Assembly (NCBI GenBank): GCA_035551615.1
Contig: DASZNC010000059.1
Location: 13,099-77,098, forward strand
Length of the DNA stretch: 64,000 nucleotides
Direction: 5' to 3'
DNA from: Acidimicrobiales bacterium
Lineage (GTDB): Bacteria > Actinomycetota > Acidimicrobiia > Acidimicrobiales > Palsa-688
The translations under genes were made by a program, and so were the position numbers. This document shows, one piece after another, positions 8,167-62,740 of this stretch (its first letter is position 1; every line of letters begins with the position of its first letter). The notes below the pieces were generated by a model. That model worked only from the letters and a program-made list of their open reading frames with translations. It made no database searches and was not told where the DNA came from.

Positions 8167-8445
8167 TCAGTCCAGCTCCTCGAAGCGGGCGCTGCGTACG
8201 GTGGCCGCATCGACGAACGCCATGAACTCCTGAGCCACGGGATCGGTCTTCCACTTCTCGTCACAGGCGTCGGCTGCGTCCGCCGACTCCCACAGGTCGA
8301 GCACCAGCCACGATCCGCGCTCCGAACGGCCGGTGGTGCGCCGCAGCAGCCCCGGTTGCTGGTAGGCGAAGTCGGTCTGGACCCGCTTGTCGGCGGCGAT
8401 GAACCGGTCGACGTCGGCTCCTTCGATCAGGTCGAAGACGAGCAT
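8167..8445 (-). CDS. small alpha/beta protein, possibly ABM/Dabb-like (92 aa)
   Basis: ORF tail starting MLVFDLIEGADVDRFIAADKRV. It is tightly coupled: its stop at 8167 is 1 nt from the downstream gene start at 8165. Confidence 0.45.
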   Translation of the reverse strand: MLVFDLIEGADVDRFIAADKRVQTDFAYQQPGLLRRTTGRSERGSWLVLDLWESADAADACDEKWKTDPVAQEFMAFVDAATVRSARFEELD

Positions 8446-8450
8446 CTCGA

Positions 8451-9328
8451 TCACGGCTGGAGGGTAGCGCCGGCCTCGACCTGCCGGGCGAGAAATGGCA
8501 GGGCGGCCAGTGACCGCATGGTGTCGTTGAGATGGGTGCAGGTGCTCGGTCCGACGAACTCCCGCCGCACCCGGTCCCGCAGATCGGCCGGGTGGGTGCC
8601 GGCCAGGCGGCCGGCGCTGGCCACGGCGCCCGGGCACTCGACCCAGGGCAGGACACCGATCTCTGCGTGAATGGACCGGAAGACGCCGGTCCGGCGGTCG
8701 ATCATCGCTCTCACCAGGTACTCGTGCACCACCCACTCGTCACCCTCGGCGTCGATGTGAGAATCCCGGAAGAAGGCTTCGACCTCGAGGGACTCTTCGG
8801 CGGCGGCGGGCCACACATCGATGCGCCGGAGCCGCCGCATGGAGTGCGGTCCGGCCCCCGCAATCGGGTGCCACCCGTCGGGATCGGCCGACAGCACCGC
8901 GGGTGCGGGCGGGCCGGTCACCTCGGGCGGATAGCCCAGCTCCTCACCCTCCACCAGGATCGTCGCGCCGGTGGCCCAGCCGGCACAGACGTCCGCCTTG
9001 TCCCGGACGTGGAACTGGCCCTTCGGCGGGTGGATGCCCGCCGCCGCAATCGGGAACCCGGCCAACAGCCCGACCGTGCCGAAGTCGTCGAGCAGCTGAT
9101 ACCGGAGGGAGCGGGCCCGATCCTCAGCGTCCCGATCCTCACCGTCCCGATCCTCGTCGTGCTGGTCGTCGGCGCCGGCCAGGTCGGCCAGGCTGCGCCG
9201 GAAGCCGGATGAGACCGACCGGCCGACCAGACCGGCGAAGCGGTCGTCGCCCGGGGTCACGGTCAGCGACCTGAGGACACTGCCCTCTATCAGGCTGAAC
9301 TCGGCCTCGACGGACGCCTCGGCGATCA
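8451..9328 (-). CDS. DUF2889-like conserved hypothetical protein
   Basis: An ATG near 9326-9328 (MIAEASVEAEF...) gives about 290 aa. Conserved Cys motifs ADVCAGWATGA and WVECPGAV. The start coordinate is approximate. Confidence 0.55.
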
Positions 9329-9761: not shown

Positions 9762-10700
9762 ATGGCCCACGCCCGCAAGTTCCGATTCGGTATCCAACTG
9801 GTAACCGCGCCTGACGGCCCGTCATGGGCGGAGACCGCCCGCAAGGTGGAGGACCTCGGGTTCTCGAGCCTGTTCCTCCCCGACCATTTCGGGGACCAAC
9901 TGTCGCCGGTGCCGGCGCTGATGGCGGCCGCTGATGCCACCACCACGCTGCGGGTCGGCGCCCTGGTGTGGGACAACGACTACAAGCATCCGGTCGTGCT
10001 GGCCAAGGAGGCCGCCACCATCGACGTCCTGTCGGGCGGCCGCCTCGAGTTCGGCATCGGCGCCGGCTGGATGAACACCGACTACGAGCAGGCCGGGATC
10101 CCCAAGGAACGGGACGGGGTCCGAATCGCCAAGCTGGCCGAGGCCATCGAGATCTACAGAGGCCTCTGGGGCCCGGACGAGTTCAGTTTCTCAGGCGAGC
10201 ACTACCAGATCGCCGGTCTCAACGGATTCCCCAAACCGGCTCAGCAGCCCCACCCGCCGCTCCTCATCGGTGGCGGCGGCCCGAAGATGCTGGCGTTGGC
10301 CGCCCGCCACGCCGACATCGTCGGGATCAACCCGGCCATCCCCAAGGGGTACATCGACGCGTCGGCCTCCGCCGAGGTCCGTCCCGACCGGCTGGACACC
10401 AAAGTGGGCTGGCTCCGCGACGCCGTCGGGGACCGCCTCGACGATCTCGAGCTGAACATCCTGGTTTTCGCCACTTCCATCGGTCCCGAGGCCGCCGCCC
10501 AGCGGGCCGGCATGGCCCAGATGTTCGGGGTCAGCGAGGACGACTTCGCCGCCTCGCCGTATGTGTGGTTCGGCGACGCCAAGGAAGTAGCCGACTCGTT
10601 GCGGGCGGCGCGCGAACGCTGGGGCACCAGCTACTTCGTGGTCCAGCCCGGCGCCCTCGATCAGGTGGCGCCCGTGATCGCCGAGCTGGCCGGGACGTAA
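9762..10700 (+). CDS. LLM-class F420-dependent oxidoreductase (luciferase-like monooxygenase family)
   Basis: MAHARKFRFGIQL start, LEFGIGAGW and FPKPAQQPHPPLLIGGGGPKMLALAARHADIVGI motifs typical of the TIGR03621-like F420 LLM family. Confidence 0.85.
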   Translation: MAHARKFRFGIQLVTAPDGPSWAETARKVEDLGFSSLFLPDHFGDQLSPVPALMAAADATTTLRVGALVWDNDYKHPVVLAKEAATIDVLSGGRLEFGIGAGWMNTDYEQAGIPKERDGVRIAKLAEAIEIYRGLWGPDEFSFSGEHYQIAGLNGFPKPAQQPHPPLLIGGGGPKMLALAARHADIVGINPAIPKGYIDASASAEVRPDRLDTKVGWLRDAVGDRLDDLELNILVFATSIGPEAAAQRAGMAQMFGVSEDDFAASPYVWFGDAKEVADSLRAARERWGTSYFVVQPGALDQVAPVIAELAGT

Positions 10701-60779: not shown

Positions 60780-61222
60780 TGCCCAAGCCCGGCACGCCCC
60801 GGTTCAACCACGTGGCCATGAGCGTCCCCGCCGATCTCCTGGATGAGGGGGGGCGGCGTGAGATCGTCTCCTTTTACCGCGAGGTCTTCGGATGGCAGGA
60901 ACTCCCGACCGAGACGGTCAACCGCGAGAAGCTGATCCTCAGCGCCTACTCCTACGACCAGTTCGTGTTCCTCATCGCCGAGGAGAAGCCGATGATGGCG
61001 CCCCGGCTGGACCATTTCGGGATGGGCGTCGCCAGCATCGAGGAGCTCGACGACTTCTACGGGCGGGCCCTCGCCTACCGGGACAAGGACGACCGGGTCG
61101 ACATCATCGACAAGCAGGTCGAGCACCATCCGGGCCTGGACCTGACCAGCTTCTACGTCGGGTACCTCCTGCCGTTGATGGTGGAGGTCCAACATTTCGC
61201 CTTCCAAATCCCGTCCGAATAG
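60779..61222 (+). CDS. VOC/glyoxalase-fold family protein
   Basis: Its ATG overlaps the upstream stop (TAATG). 147 aa: FNHVAMSVPADL ... REVFGWQELP ... DHFGMGVASIEEL. Confidence 0.6.
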   Translation: MPKPGTPRFNHVAMSVPADLLDEGGRREIVSFYREVFGWQELPTETVNREKLILSAYSYDQFVFLIAEEKPMMAPRLDHFGMGVASIEELDDFYGRALAYRDKDDRVDIIDKQVEHHPGLDLTSFYVGYLLPLMVEVQHFAFQIPSE

Positions 61223-61227
61223 AATAA

Positions 61228-61385
61228 TATTCGGGTGACGGCGCGATTCCGTCCTGAGCGGTAACAGCCCGCAGATCCCGCCGCCGGCGGGATGGTCCGG
61301 TGCGAGCCCGGAGCCAACGGTGACAGTCCGAGCAGACCAACTGGTTGGCGCCCGCCCGGCGCCTCGGATGTGAACGTCGGAGAAT
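61228..61385 (+). ncRNA. putative FMN riboswitch (RFN element) with GGCGCC-loop-GGCGCC expression-platform hairpin
   Basis: UUCGGGUGAcGG...AUUCCgucCugaGCGGUAacAGCCCGC and AGCCaACgGUGAcAGUCCGagcAGA resemble the conserved FMN-aptamer segments. It sits directly upstream of a riboflavin-biosynthesis gene, with a GGAGAA RBS just before the ATG. Confidence 0.55.
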
Positions 61386-61388
61386 CGC

Positions 61389-62621
61389 ATGTACAACGGA
61401 AGAATCACTGAAATCGGCATCATCACTGCCACTACTGTAGGCCGGCGGCGATCGATCGTCGTCGCCGCGAACAAGACCGCCGGCCTGGTCGCCCCCGGAG
61501 GTTCGGTGGCCGTTAACGGCACCTGCCTGTCGGTGACCGGCGTGGGCGACGACTGGTTCGAAGCCGACTTATCGGAGGAGACGGCGGCCCGCACCACGCT
61601 CGACGAATGGCCGGCCGGCCACGCCGTCAACCTGGAGGTCCCGCTCCGGGTCGGCGATCCGCTCGACGGGCACCTGGTGCAGGGCCACGTGGATGGCGTC
61701 GGCAAGGTGACCCATGTCGAGGTGGACGAGCTGGGTGGGCGGCGGGTGTGGATCCGTCCGCCCAAACGGTTGATGGACGATGTCGTCGGCAAGGGGTCGG
61801 TGGCGGTCGACGGCGTCAGCCTGACCGTCGCCGAGCGGCTGGCCGACAGATTCTCGGTGGCCCTCATCCCGGTCACCCAACGGGAGACGACGCTCGGCTC
61901 GGTCGCCGACGGCCAAAGGGTCAACCTGGAATCCGACCTGTTCGCCAAGTCGGCCGGCGAGTTGCACGCCGCCGCCCGCCTGGTCGCGGCTCGGACGCTG
62001 GCCGCGCTGCCGTGGGCCGGCGAGCTGCGGGGCCGGGCCGGCGTCGACAAATGCGCCGCCCATCTGGCCACCGGTGGCGGGGTGCTGATCTACGACCCCG
62101 ACCGCGAGGCGGAGGCCGACATCGTCTTCGCCGGCGCCGGGTTCCGGCCGGAGTCGATGGCGTTCCTCCTGACCCACGCCTGCGGGCACACGACCGTCCC
62201 GTGCGACCGGGCCCGCCTGGACCGGCTCGAGATCGAGGCCCTGCCCGGGCCCGGGGACCGCCACGGGACGGCACCGCACGTTCCGGTCGACCTGGCGGCT
62301 GGTACCGGTACCGGCGTGTCAGCCTTCGACCGGGCGGCCACCATCCGCCGGCTGGCCCACCCCGACGCCGTCCCATCCGACTTCCTGCGGCCCGGGCACG
62401 TCTTCCCCCTGGGCGCTCGACCCGGCGGGTTAGCCGAGCGGCGGGGTCACACCGAAGCGTCGCTGGCTCTCTGCCAGGTCGCCGGCCGGCCGACGGTAGC
62501 GGTCATATGCGAGGTGATGGGGCCGGACGGCCGGATGTTGAACGGCTCCGCCGTGGAGCGGTTCGCCCTGCGCTGGTCCCTGCCCATGATCAGCGTGGAC
62601 GACCTGGCTGGCGTCGCCTGA
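61389..62621 (+). CDS. bifunctional riboflavin synthase (alpha chain) / 3,4-dihydroxy-2-butanone-4-phosphate synthase fusion
   Basis: N-terminal tandem lumazine-binding repeats (MYNGRITEIG..., GHLVQGHVDGVGKV..., VALIPVTQRETTLG). C-terminal DHBP synthase motifs (DREAEADIVFAG, RPGHVFPL, RRGHTEASL). Confidence 0.85.
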   Translation: MYNGRITEIGIITATTVGRRRSIVVAANKTAGLVAPGGSVAVNGTCLSVTGVGDDWFEADLSEETAARTTLDEWPAGHAVNLEVPLRVGDPLDGHLVQGHVDGVGKVTHVEVDELGGRRVWIRPPKRLMDDVVGKGSVAVDGVSLTVAERLADRFSVALIPVTQRETTLGSVADGQRVNLESDLFAKSAGELHAAARLVAARTLAALPWAGELRGRAGVDKCAAHLATGGGVLIYDPDREAEADIVFAGAGFRPESMAFLLTHACGHTTVPCDRARLDRLEIEALPGPGDRHGTAPHVPVDLAAGTGTGVSAFDRAATIRRLAHPDAVPSDFLRPGHVFPLGARPGGLAERRGHTEASLALCQVAGRPTVAVICEVMGPDGRMLNGSAVERFALRWSLPMISVDDLAGVA

Positions 62622-62740
62622 CGGCGTGGCCGGCGTCGCCTGACGGGGTGGCCGGCGGCGGCGCCGGTCGCGGGGGCGCCGGTCGGGGCCGGCCGCGTCG
62701 CCTGACGGCGTGGGCAGCCGGCTGCTCGTCGCCTGGCGCC
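62610..62740. repeat. 22-nt GC-rich tandem repeat GGCGTCGCCTGACGGCGTGGCC (3 good + 2 degenerate copies) overlapping the 3' end and stop codon of the rib fusion gene
   Basis: Read directly. The first unit contains the gene's TGA stop and is then reiterated downstream. Confidence 0.5.

Follow-up and report, generated by a model that had tools for sequence, protein, structure and literature searches.

A conserved leader of riboflavin synthase-DHBP synthase fusion genes in Actinomycetota is very probably an FMN riboswitch derivative without helix P1

The 64-kb stretch of Acidimicrobiales DNA analysed here (the window) carries a gene in which riboflavin synthase (RibE) is fused to 3,4-dihydroxy-2-butanone 4-phosphate (DHBP) synthase (DHBPS, RibB), preceded by an intergenic leader (Table 1). 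Comparison with other Actinomycetota makes it very probable that this leader holds a conserved element that descends from the flavin mononucleotide (FMN) riboswitch, has dispensed with helix P1 and forms a family of its own. The element, a relative of a known riboswitch, is absent from Rfam 15. A first-pass annotation, made from the letters of the DNA, had proposed a putative FMN riboswitch in front of an unusual fusion gene. All the sequence features on which it drew are confirmed, including a 166-nt leader with strings resembling FMN-aptamer strands (GGGUGACGGCGCGAUUCC...GCGGUAACAGCCCGC and GAGCCAACGGUGACAGUCCGAGCAGA) and a GGCGCC/GGCGCC hairpin that ends 15 nt 5' of the Shine-Dalgarno (SD) sequence GGAG. 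The RNA, however, is more interesting than that annotation held, and the protein, being a common fusion, is less unusual.

The kinship with the FMN riboswitch comes to light in permissive searches, which were needed because a search of the whole window at Rfam gathering thresholds yields zero matches. Run permissively on a 301-nt stretch, the FMN model RF00050 aligns to positions 61223-61341 with an E value of 1.4e-8 and 42.3 bits, whereas its gathering score is 66.2 bits. The proposed homology to the FMN aptamer thus holds, but the leader does not contain a standard FMN riboswitch. Of the eight P1 pairs in the alignment four are non-canonical, and model positions 122-127, within junction J6/1 (GGAUGgg), are deleted, a loss of six nucleotides. 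No other Rfam 15 family matches the leader. Related leaders from Actinomycetota score 49.3, 44.3, 37.9 and 33.0 bits, the third of these through a local alignment to RF00050 positions 17-121 only; none of eight relative loci searched at the gathering threshold passes it, and four cultured actinomycete loci give no match even at E<=0.1. Canonical controls from GC-rich genomes of like kind reach 81-111 bits.

Conservation is what defines the element. Our sample comprised 30 Actinomycetota loci with complete leaders, drawn from metagenome-assembled genomes of Acidimicrobiales and other groups, among them the window's closest relative (L043, 96 % identical), and from the cultured actinomycetes Nonomuraea mangrovi, Streptomyces sp. 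NBC_01304, Amycolatopsis anabasis, Planobispora longispora and Saccharothrix luteola. An element of ~95 nt lies directly 5' of the fusion gene in 30/30 loci, and a purpose-built covariance model (R1) gives 75-112 bits on these leaders, each of which adjoins a fusion gene. RNAalifold independently predicts five hairpins, P2 to P6. In the alignment of the 30 sequences 93.7 % of the cells are paired, 13 pairs are changed on both sides and covariation is found in all five helices; 0/500 shuffles reached this, and slid controls gave 28-60 %. The outer pairs of P2 covary between AU, UA and GC, P3 shows compensatory changes to GUGG/CCAC in L042 and to GCCG/CGGC in L040, and a pair of P5 changes from U-A to C-G between the window and L043. 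The loop nucleotides are near-invariant across the 30 leaders, and the loops are FMN-like.

The resemblance to RF00050 accordingly covers the P2-P6 hairpins with their loops of the GGUGnnAnUCC type, the 2-bp helix between J2/3 and J5/6, the pair between L3 and J5/6, and the equivalents of G32 and G62-A63, all within the 5' untranslated region of a riboflavin biosynthesis gene. The G32 equivalent (alignment column 25) is G in 30/30 sequences and forms a G-C pair with column 92 in 29/30, and columns 24 and 93 are U-A in 21 and U-G in 2 of 30; the 2-bp helix is kept, with a change from C-G to U-A. A mutual-information scan picked out two tertiary pairs, one joining the first nucleotide of J2/3 (column 23) to the sixth of L6 (column 104; CG 18, GC 11, AU 1), the other joining the last nucleotide of L3 (column 38) to the first of J5/6 (column 90; CG 19, UA 8, UG 2). 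The latter covaries in canonical relatives too, being C-G in L028, L044 and L045 and U-A in L038. Both pairs are consistent with the FMN aptamer's fold of two pseudo-symmetric domains.

The binding pocket has fared less evenly. In the canonical aptamer, FMN is contacted by G10, G11, G32, A48, G62, G84, A85 and A99 (Serganov 2009, summarised in PMC6298564, PMC7573352). Six of these eight contacts are lost or changed in the variant: G32 and G62 (column 71, together with A63) are kept; G10 and G11 of J1/2 are absent, as are G98 and A99 of J6/1; the A48 position holds G in 19 and A in 10 of 30 sequences; the G84 position is A in 25/30, and with its partner C31 replaced by U the C31-G84 pair becomes U-A; and the A85 position is variable or absent. 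Judged by these nucleotides, the phosphate and ribityl side of the pocket (G32, G62-A63 and the CC of J5/6) is kept, and the isoalloxazine side together with the P1-side strands (A48, A85, A99, G10, G11) is gone or changed. Canonical binding of FMN by the variant is unlikely for that reason. Given also the failed gathering score and the loss of P1, J1/2 and J6/1, control by FMN is not established.

Throughout the 30 leaders the element is without P1, without J1/2 and almost without J6/1. A hidden P1 was not found either: the 35 nt 5' of P2 show no complementarity to the 25 nt that follow P6 (mean z -0.13). Instead, a TANNNT box ends 8-14 nt 5' of the invariant GG of P2 in 26/30 leaders, compared with 1.1 % of windows drawn at random from these loci, and the four other leaders have TATA-like boxes at the same position. 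The sequence 5' of this -10 box is not conserved, and a scan of the window's leader for an E. coli-type -35/-10 promoter found none; the TAGAAT box of the window (61220-61225) shares nucleotides with the stop codon of the ORF (open reading frame) upstream. Since the -10 box abuts P2, we infer that transcription begins 0-6 nt 5' of P2, which would make P2 the 5'-terminal structure of the transcript. This step is the weakest link of the argument. As a separate observation, a perfect 12-nt palindrome, GACCGATCGGTC, stands immediately 5' of the TAGTAT/TAGTCT box in L004 (~1026-1037) and L006, and L007 has a degenerate version of it, GACCGAACCGAC; the palindrome could be a transcription-factor operator that overlaps the promoter.

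Where did the element come from? In three loci of Chloroflexi/Dehalococcoidia (L028, L044 and L045) the same fusion gene stands alone behind a full canonical FMN riboswitch, scoring 81, 105 and 111 bits, respectively. The variant of Actinomycetota, which occupies the orthologous position, is therefore taken to be the derived state, descended from an FMN riboswitch at the same place, and the fusion gene to belong genuinely to the flavin regulon. In L044 and L045 a promoter of the type TTGACA-17-TAGGCT abuts the 5' strand of P1, and the J6/1-P1-3' segment (GGGAGAGAAC) can pair with a downstream CCUUCUCCCC...GCUCC, an element by which the SD is sequestered otherwise; this is a platform of the classic translational OFF kind. 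We envision that a deletion of ~15 nt, comprising the P1 5' strand and J1/2, would have brought the -10 box beside P2 and made the mRNA start there, and that J6/1 would have shrunk as well. A scan of metagenomes with a DNA pattern for the P3...P5-P6 motif returned one match, L038, which proved to be a canonical FMN riboswitch and was rejected as a variant element.

How might an element without P1 control the gene? Junction-type riboswitches, essentially all of them, communicate through helix P1, and in the FMN class the ligand bridges P6 and P1. The platform of the window's clade is not of this P1-coupled type. Our scans of the leader found no intrinsic terminator, and the GGCGCC hairpin (61347-61363) is not followed by a U-tract and was not called as one; translational control is therefore the natural reading. 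We distinguish three platforms. In type A, seen in the window and in Acidimicrobiales groups 1-2, P6 is followed by one or two GC-rich hairpins and then by the SD. The GC-rich hairpin retains its stem in L043 with a changed loop, and group-1 relatives have a GC-rich hairpin of other sequence at the same place. The spacer between SD and AUG is complementary to an aptamer hairpin, in many relatives as GGACU(N)GUCAC facing GGUGAsAGUCC of P6/L6. The segment of the ribosome-binding site (RBS) that is complementary to P6/L6 in these relatives reads GGACUGUCAC; the complement is perfect over 9 nt in L002 and L006, and AGUCC:GGACU covaries to AGCCC:GGGCU in L013 and L014. Type C/3 has, before the SD, a pyrimidine element (CCUUC or CCUCCUCG) to which a purine tail (GAAGG, GAGGG or CGAGGA) pairs. 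Cultured actinomycetes make up type B, in which P6 is adjoined by a 10-nt anti-SD, CCACCUCUCG; the SD strand is the pairing partner of this anti-SD, and L042 shows compensatory changes between the two.

Duplex and accessibility predictions were made for 25 leaders. The duplex between P6 plus tail and the SD region reaches z values of -2 to -3.8 in 13/25, and predicted accessibility of the RBS rises in 23/25 when the aptamer is enforced; for the window, the probability that the SD is unpaired goes from 0.09 in the free ensemble to 0.52. In the unconstrained minimum free energy fold of the window, the SD-AUG segment pairs with L2/P2. The perfect complement of 7 nt underlying this pairing has a chance expectation of ~0.07 and is weak evidence alone.

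We envision a scenario whereby the element would still act in cis as a sensor, controlling the start of translation of the two enzymes of the riboflavin branch. With the aptamer folded, presumably stabilised by its ligand, the RBS would be free; an unfolded aptamer would sequester it, an ON logic opposite to that of the canonical switch. That the element still responds to a ligand seems to us reasonably probable. ON logic in the window's type of platform, suggested by the modelled folds, is a tentative reading that falls a little short of an even chance, and the explanation as a whole, a P1-less FMN-derived element together with this mechanism, we regard as evenly balanced.

Several observations weigh against this explanation. 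The tertiary pairs were picked post hoc from the mutual-information scan, and two deep clades in the alignment partly confound them; for both reasons we treat them as supporting only. The window's own copy deviates at conserved positions (GG for GA in J4/5, C for U in L2). The gain in accessibility is partly trivial, as enforcing the aptamer strips the RBS of its pairing partners, and family-wide, a leader's own SD region pairs with the whole aptamer no better than do shuffled SDs or those of other groups (mean z -0.2); competition between SD and aptamer must therefore be regarded as a feature of one subclade and not as a general one. Platforms differ by clade: group 3 and L011, L013 and L014 keep a canonical-looking succession of purine tail, pyrimidine element and SD, and in type B the SD is locked whether or not the aptamer folds. 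Finally, ON logic requires a change of both ligand and sign relative to the FMN-repressed gene of Chloroflexi, which is a large change. A circular permutation, with a helix after P6 replacing P1 and the SD strand serving as J1/2, was considered and dropped, as it fits group 2 and not groups 3 or 4.

Regulatory continuity would be more parsimonious, because the Chloroflexi copies of the gene stand behind canonical FMN riboswitches. On that account the element would be a P1-less OFF switch for FMN (or riboflavin), whose ligand would hold the post-P6 strand or a P6-stacked helix, leaving the SD occluded. The post-P6 strand would be a remnant of J6/1-P1-3' (GAAGG/GAGGG in some clades), and a downstream pyrimidine element or local hairpin would cover the SD, as the canonical translational platform does. 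The order of purine tail, CCUUC/CCUCCUCG and SD in group 3, L011, L013 and L014 looks homologous to that of L044/L045, the conserved G32, G62-A63 and J2/3-J5/6 helix point the same way, and in the canonical aptamer the action of FMN is to bridge P6 and the helix that follows (PMC7573352). However, the absence of G10, G11 and A99 and the changed or variable A48, G84 and A85 speak against it. So does the window's clade, which has no pyrimidine anti-SD and where folding of the aptamer is predicted to leave the RBS open. The post-P6 tail is moreover not conserved (its columns 109-112 are variable), and without P1 there is no obvious clamp for it. On balance we consider an OFF switch of this kind unlikely.

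Alternatively, the element may be a ligand-independent relic. The deletion of the P1 5' strand and J1/2 would then have permanently de-repressed the fusion gene or fixed its expression, and P2-P6 would have been kept as protection of the 5' end from decay, as an element that tunes translation, or as a protein-binding site. Half of the binding pocket and the switching helix are indeed gone, the switch logic is inconsistent across clades, the group 3 anti-sequestor pairing GAAGG:CCUUC would form constitutively without P1, and the element would sit at the extreme 5' end. Yet a simple stabiliser needs neither five hairpins with invariant loops nor the junction nucleotides G25, G71-A72 and C91-C92 nor covarying tertiary pairs, all of which have been maintained from Acidimicrobiia to Streptomyces, and aptamers without function normally decay fast. 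The relic strikes us as improbable. The reading of the first-pass annotation, an ordinary but divergent FMN riboswitch whose P1 is formed by sequences that the models miss, can draw on RF00050 as the sole Rfam family to match locally and on the flavin-biosynthesis context, but it is extremely improbable in view of the sub-threshold scores of all Actinomycetota relatives tested beside true FMN riboswitches, the missing 5'/3' complementarity, the -10 box that abuts P2 and the deleted J6/1.

Returning to the P1-less sensor with ON logic, which ligand could it recognise? Variant FMN riboswitches with an altered pocket have been described as subtypes 1 and 2, which discriminate against FMN or can do without it; subtype 2 at least is an ON switch, and the natural ligand of the subtypes is unknown (Atilho et al. 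2019, RNA 25:23, PMC6298564). These subtypes have the full six stems including P1, occur in Clostridia and relatives and are associated with transporters and efflux pumps (PMC6298564). The present variant is likewise an FMN-derived aptamer with altered pocket nucleotides; it differs from the subtypes in occurring in Actinomycetota, in lacking P1 and in preceding a biosynthetic RibE-RibB fusion. From RF00050 it differs by the missing P1, J1/2 and J6/1, by scores of 33-49 bits or none and by a transcript that would begin at P2. It is conceivable, if a long shot, that the element represents a new class that senses a ribityl(-phosphate) intermediate of the riboflavin branch in place of FMN and turns ON translation of RibE-RibB, with 5-amino-6-ribitylaminouracil, its 5'-phosphate or 6,7-dimethyl-8-ribityllumazine as examples of candidate ligands. 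RibE and RibB are the enzymes that use up such intermediates, RibE by converting the lumazine and RibB by providing DHBP. The first of these compounds is common to riboflavin and F420 synthesis. If true, the element would be a feed-forward valve for the riboflavin branch in F420-producing phyla. It would also be the first riboswitch built on a multi-helix junction that has been shown to function at the very 5' end of an mRNA with no P1 for switching.

A widespread FMN-type aptamer without P1, J1/2 and J6/1 would mean either that a large aptamer can signal in another way or that a riboswitch has been re-purposed, for another ligand or for a role without sensing; either meaning bears on how riboswitches gain new functions. 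Leaders of rib genes in Streptomyces, Amycolatopsis, Nonomuraea and Saccharothrix remain unannotated because Rfam-based pipelines miss the element, and the literature we searched describes no P1-less FMN-like element, no FMN riboswitch of Acidimicrobiia and no RibE-RibB fusion. The gene under this leader is an uncharacterised fusion that joins the first riboflavin-specific step to the last, and its control is relevant to the partitioning of precursors between flavins and F420 as well as to antibiotics that target FMN riboswitches, roseoflavin and ribocil, in actinomycetes. Cultured carriers exist, which makes the question directly testable.

The protein encoded downstream is a genuine fusion of RibE and RibB with the catalytic residues of both halves intact. 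Its tandem lumazine-binding repeats, its C-terminal DHBPS domain and the motifs RPGHVFPL and RRGHTEA, all named by the first-pass annotation, are present, and the N-terminal half matches riboflavin synthase models: the NCBIfam equivalog NF006767 scores 183 bits (cut-off 155) and TIGR00187 148.3 bits, slightly under its cut-off of 156.6. For the RibB half, the equivalog-domain model TIGR00506 gives 148.9 bits, under its cut-off of 177.45; RibBA equivalog models align to residues 219-407 only, far under their cut-offs, and Pfam finds no GTP cyclohydrolase II domain in the fusion protein. In the window's clade S41, C48, H102, S146 and T148 (E. coli numbering) are conserved; F2 of RibE is Y in the window, as in 47/121 relatives. 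The metal-binding, substrate-binding and catalytic residues of DHBPS (R37, E38, E40, D42, H136, R150, H153, T154, E155 and E174) are invariant in 121/121 fusions, in 120 of which C67 is replaced by T, a clade-wide change; the FTVT motif is altered.

The order RibE-RibB does differ from the textbook RibBA, in line with the claim that the fusion is unusual; the architecture itself, though, occurs in thousands of protein clusters of Actinomycetota and Chloroflexi, including many cultured actinomycetes, whose public annotation names them only 'riboflavin synthase' or 'DHBP synthase'. Like RibBA, the protein joins a DHBPS domain with conserved catalytic residues to another domain of the riboflavin pathway; unlike RibBA, its partner is an N-terminal riboflavin synthase and not a C-terminal GTP cyclohydrolase II, and C67T and the altered FTVT set it apart. 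RibBX is reportedly a further protein in which a DHBPS domain is fused to another domain. With RibE/RibC (NF006767, TIGR00187) the protein shares the two lumazine-binding barrels and a score above the NF006767 cut-off, and it departs from them in its C-terminal DHBPS extension of 220 residues and in Y at F2. The fusion is metabolically sensible: lumazine synthase depends on the DHBP that RibB makes, and the 5-amino-6-ribitylaminouracil that RibE regenerates requires a second DHBP. The loci L031, L033-L035 and L037, at first taken for distant fusions, have adjacent ordinary ribE and ribBA genes and were set aside.

The cultured actinomycetes form a clade apart, also in comparison with RibE/RibC. 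In all their fusions (L023, L039-L042, P0121-P0240; Nonomuraea, Streptomyces, Planobispora, Saccharothrix, Amycolatopsis and others) C48 is replaced by G, R or A and H102 by N, D, A or Y, with the DHBPS residues intact. Their synthase half is probably inactive, to judge from these replacements, or may instead have been re-purposed as a ligand-binding domain. The logic of their leaders is not to be carried over to the window.

Two of these loci have a class-I S-adenosylmethionine-dependent methyltransferase gene (Methyltransf_11/25) that overlaps the fusion stop codon: L039 (Streptomyces sp. NBC_01304) at 8224-8961 and L042 (Saccharothrix luteola) at 8218-9000. The two enzymes are 70 % identical; as none was found at the other loci, a conserved partnership with the fusion was ruled out. 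F420-related genes lie a few kb from the fusion in L040 (1-1535) and L042 (5340-5786); the neighbours in these two actinomycetes are a CofH/FbiC-like radical-SAM gene and an F420H2-dependent quinone reductase, and their proximity may be a coincidence. In L029 (3582-4193) a good variant leader (99 bits) runs straight into the gene's interior, at about residue 252 (...FLLTRVCGHTTVPCD), and the catalytic GHTEA motif reads GQTEA; this copy would be an artefact of assembly if it is not a pseudogene or the remnant of a deletion.

Table 1. Features of the leader and fusion gene in the window
Feature	Position	Strand	Details
Intergenic leader	61223-61388	+	166 nt; precedes fusion ORF
Putative promoter -10 region	61220-61230	+	TAGAAT 61220-61225, overlapped by TAATAT 61225-61230
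P2 hairpin	61237-61253	+	GACGG CGCGAUU CCGUC; RNAalifold; aligns to RF00050 P2
J2/3	61254-61257	+	CUGA; invariant G (= FMN G32), U pairing with A of J5/6
P3 hairpin	61258-61272	+	GCGG UAACAGC CCGC; 100 % paired in 30 sequences
J3/4	61273-61274	+	AG
P4 hairpin	61275-61293	+	AUCCCGCC GCC GGCGGGAU; 5/8 pairs changed on both sides
J4/5	61294-61295	+	GG; family consensus GA (G 28/30, A 29/30)
P5 hairpin	61296-61312	+	UCCGG UGCGAGC CCGGA; outer pair CG 17, UA 10, UG 2
J5/6	61313-61317	+	GCCAA; CC invariant; RF00050 consensus gCCGAC
P6 hairpin	61318-61330	+	CGG UGACAGU CCG; outer pair GC 12, UA 6
Post-P6 tail	61331-61336	+	AGCAGA, where canonical J6/1 GGAUGGGAG would lie
First GC-rich hairpin	61337-61348	+	CCAA-CUGG-UUGG; predicted folds
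Second GC-rich hairpin	61347-61363	+	GGCGCC-CGCCC-GGCGCC; hairpin of the first-pass annotation; predicted folds
RBS	61379-61391	+	SD GGAG 61379-61382, spacer AAUCGC, ATG 61389
RBS segment GGAGAAUCGC			Complement of L2/P2-3' GCGAUUCC (61243-61250)
Fusion ORF	61389-62621	+	410 aa; start codon ATG 61389
Riboflavin synthase half (RibE)	61389-61955	+	Residues 1-189; two lumazine-binding repeats, PF00677 twice
DHBP synthase half (RibB)	62055-62621	+	Residues 223-407; PF00926 192 bits; includes stop codon

In the window the fusion gene stands alone, as the first-pass annotation had it: tblastn searches of the 64 kb for RibA, RibD and RibH found none. The flanking genes encode a Zn-dependent alcohol dehydrogenase, a 146-aa ORF that has no Pfam match, and, on the opposite strand, an epimerase. 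Within the leader, L2 starts with C at 61242, where 29/30 sequences have U, and J4/5 reads GG at 61294-61295, where 29/30 have GA; L043 has the consensus at both sites (CGA at that of J4/5), and the two deviations appear to be private changes of the window's copy. A second match of R1 in the window, at 9808-9913 (20.8 bits, E=0.15), was discarded as noise within a coding region; the product of that region begins MAHARKFRFGIQLV... and looks, by eye, luciferase-like or of F420 type. Just downstream of the fusion ORF, its 3' end including the stop codon is repeated in tandem: the interval 62588-62738 contains three exact copies and one degenerate copy of CGTCGCCTGACG, as well as two 22-nt units, GGCGTCGCCTGACGG(C/G)GTGGCC, arranged head to tail, which looks like a local duplication or slippage.

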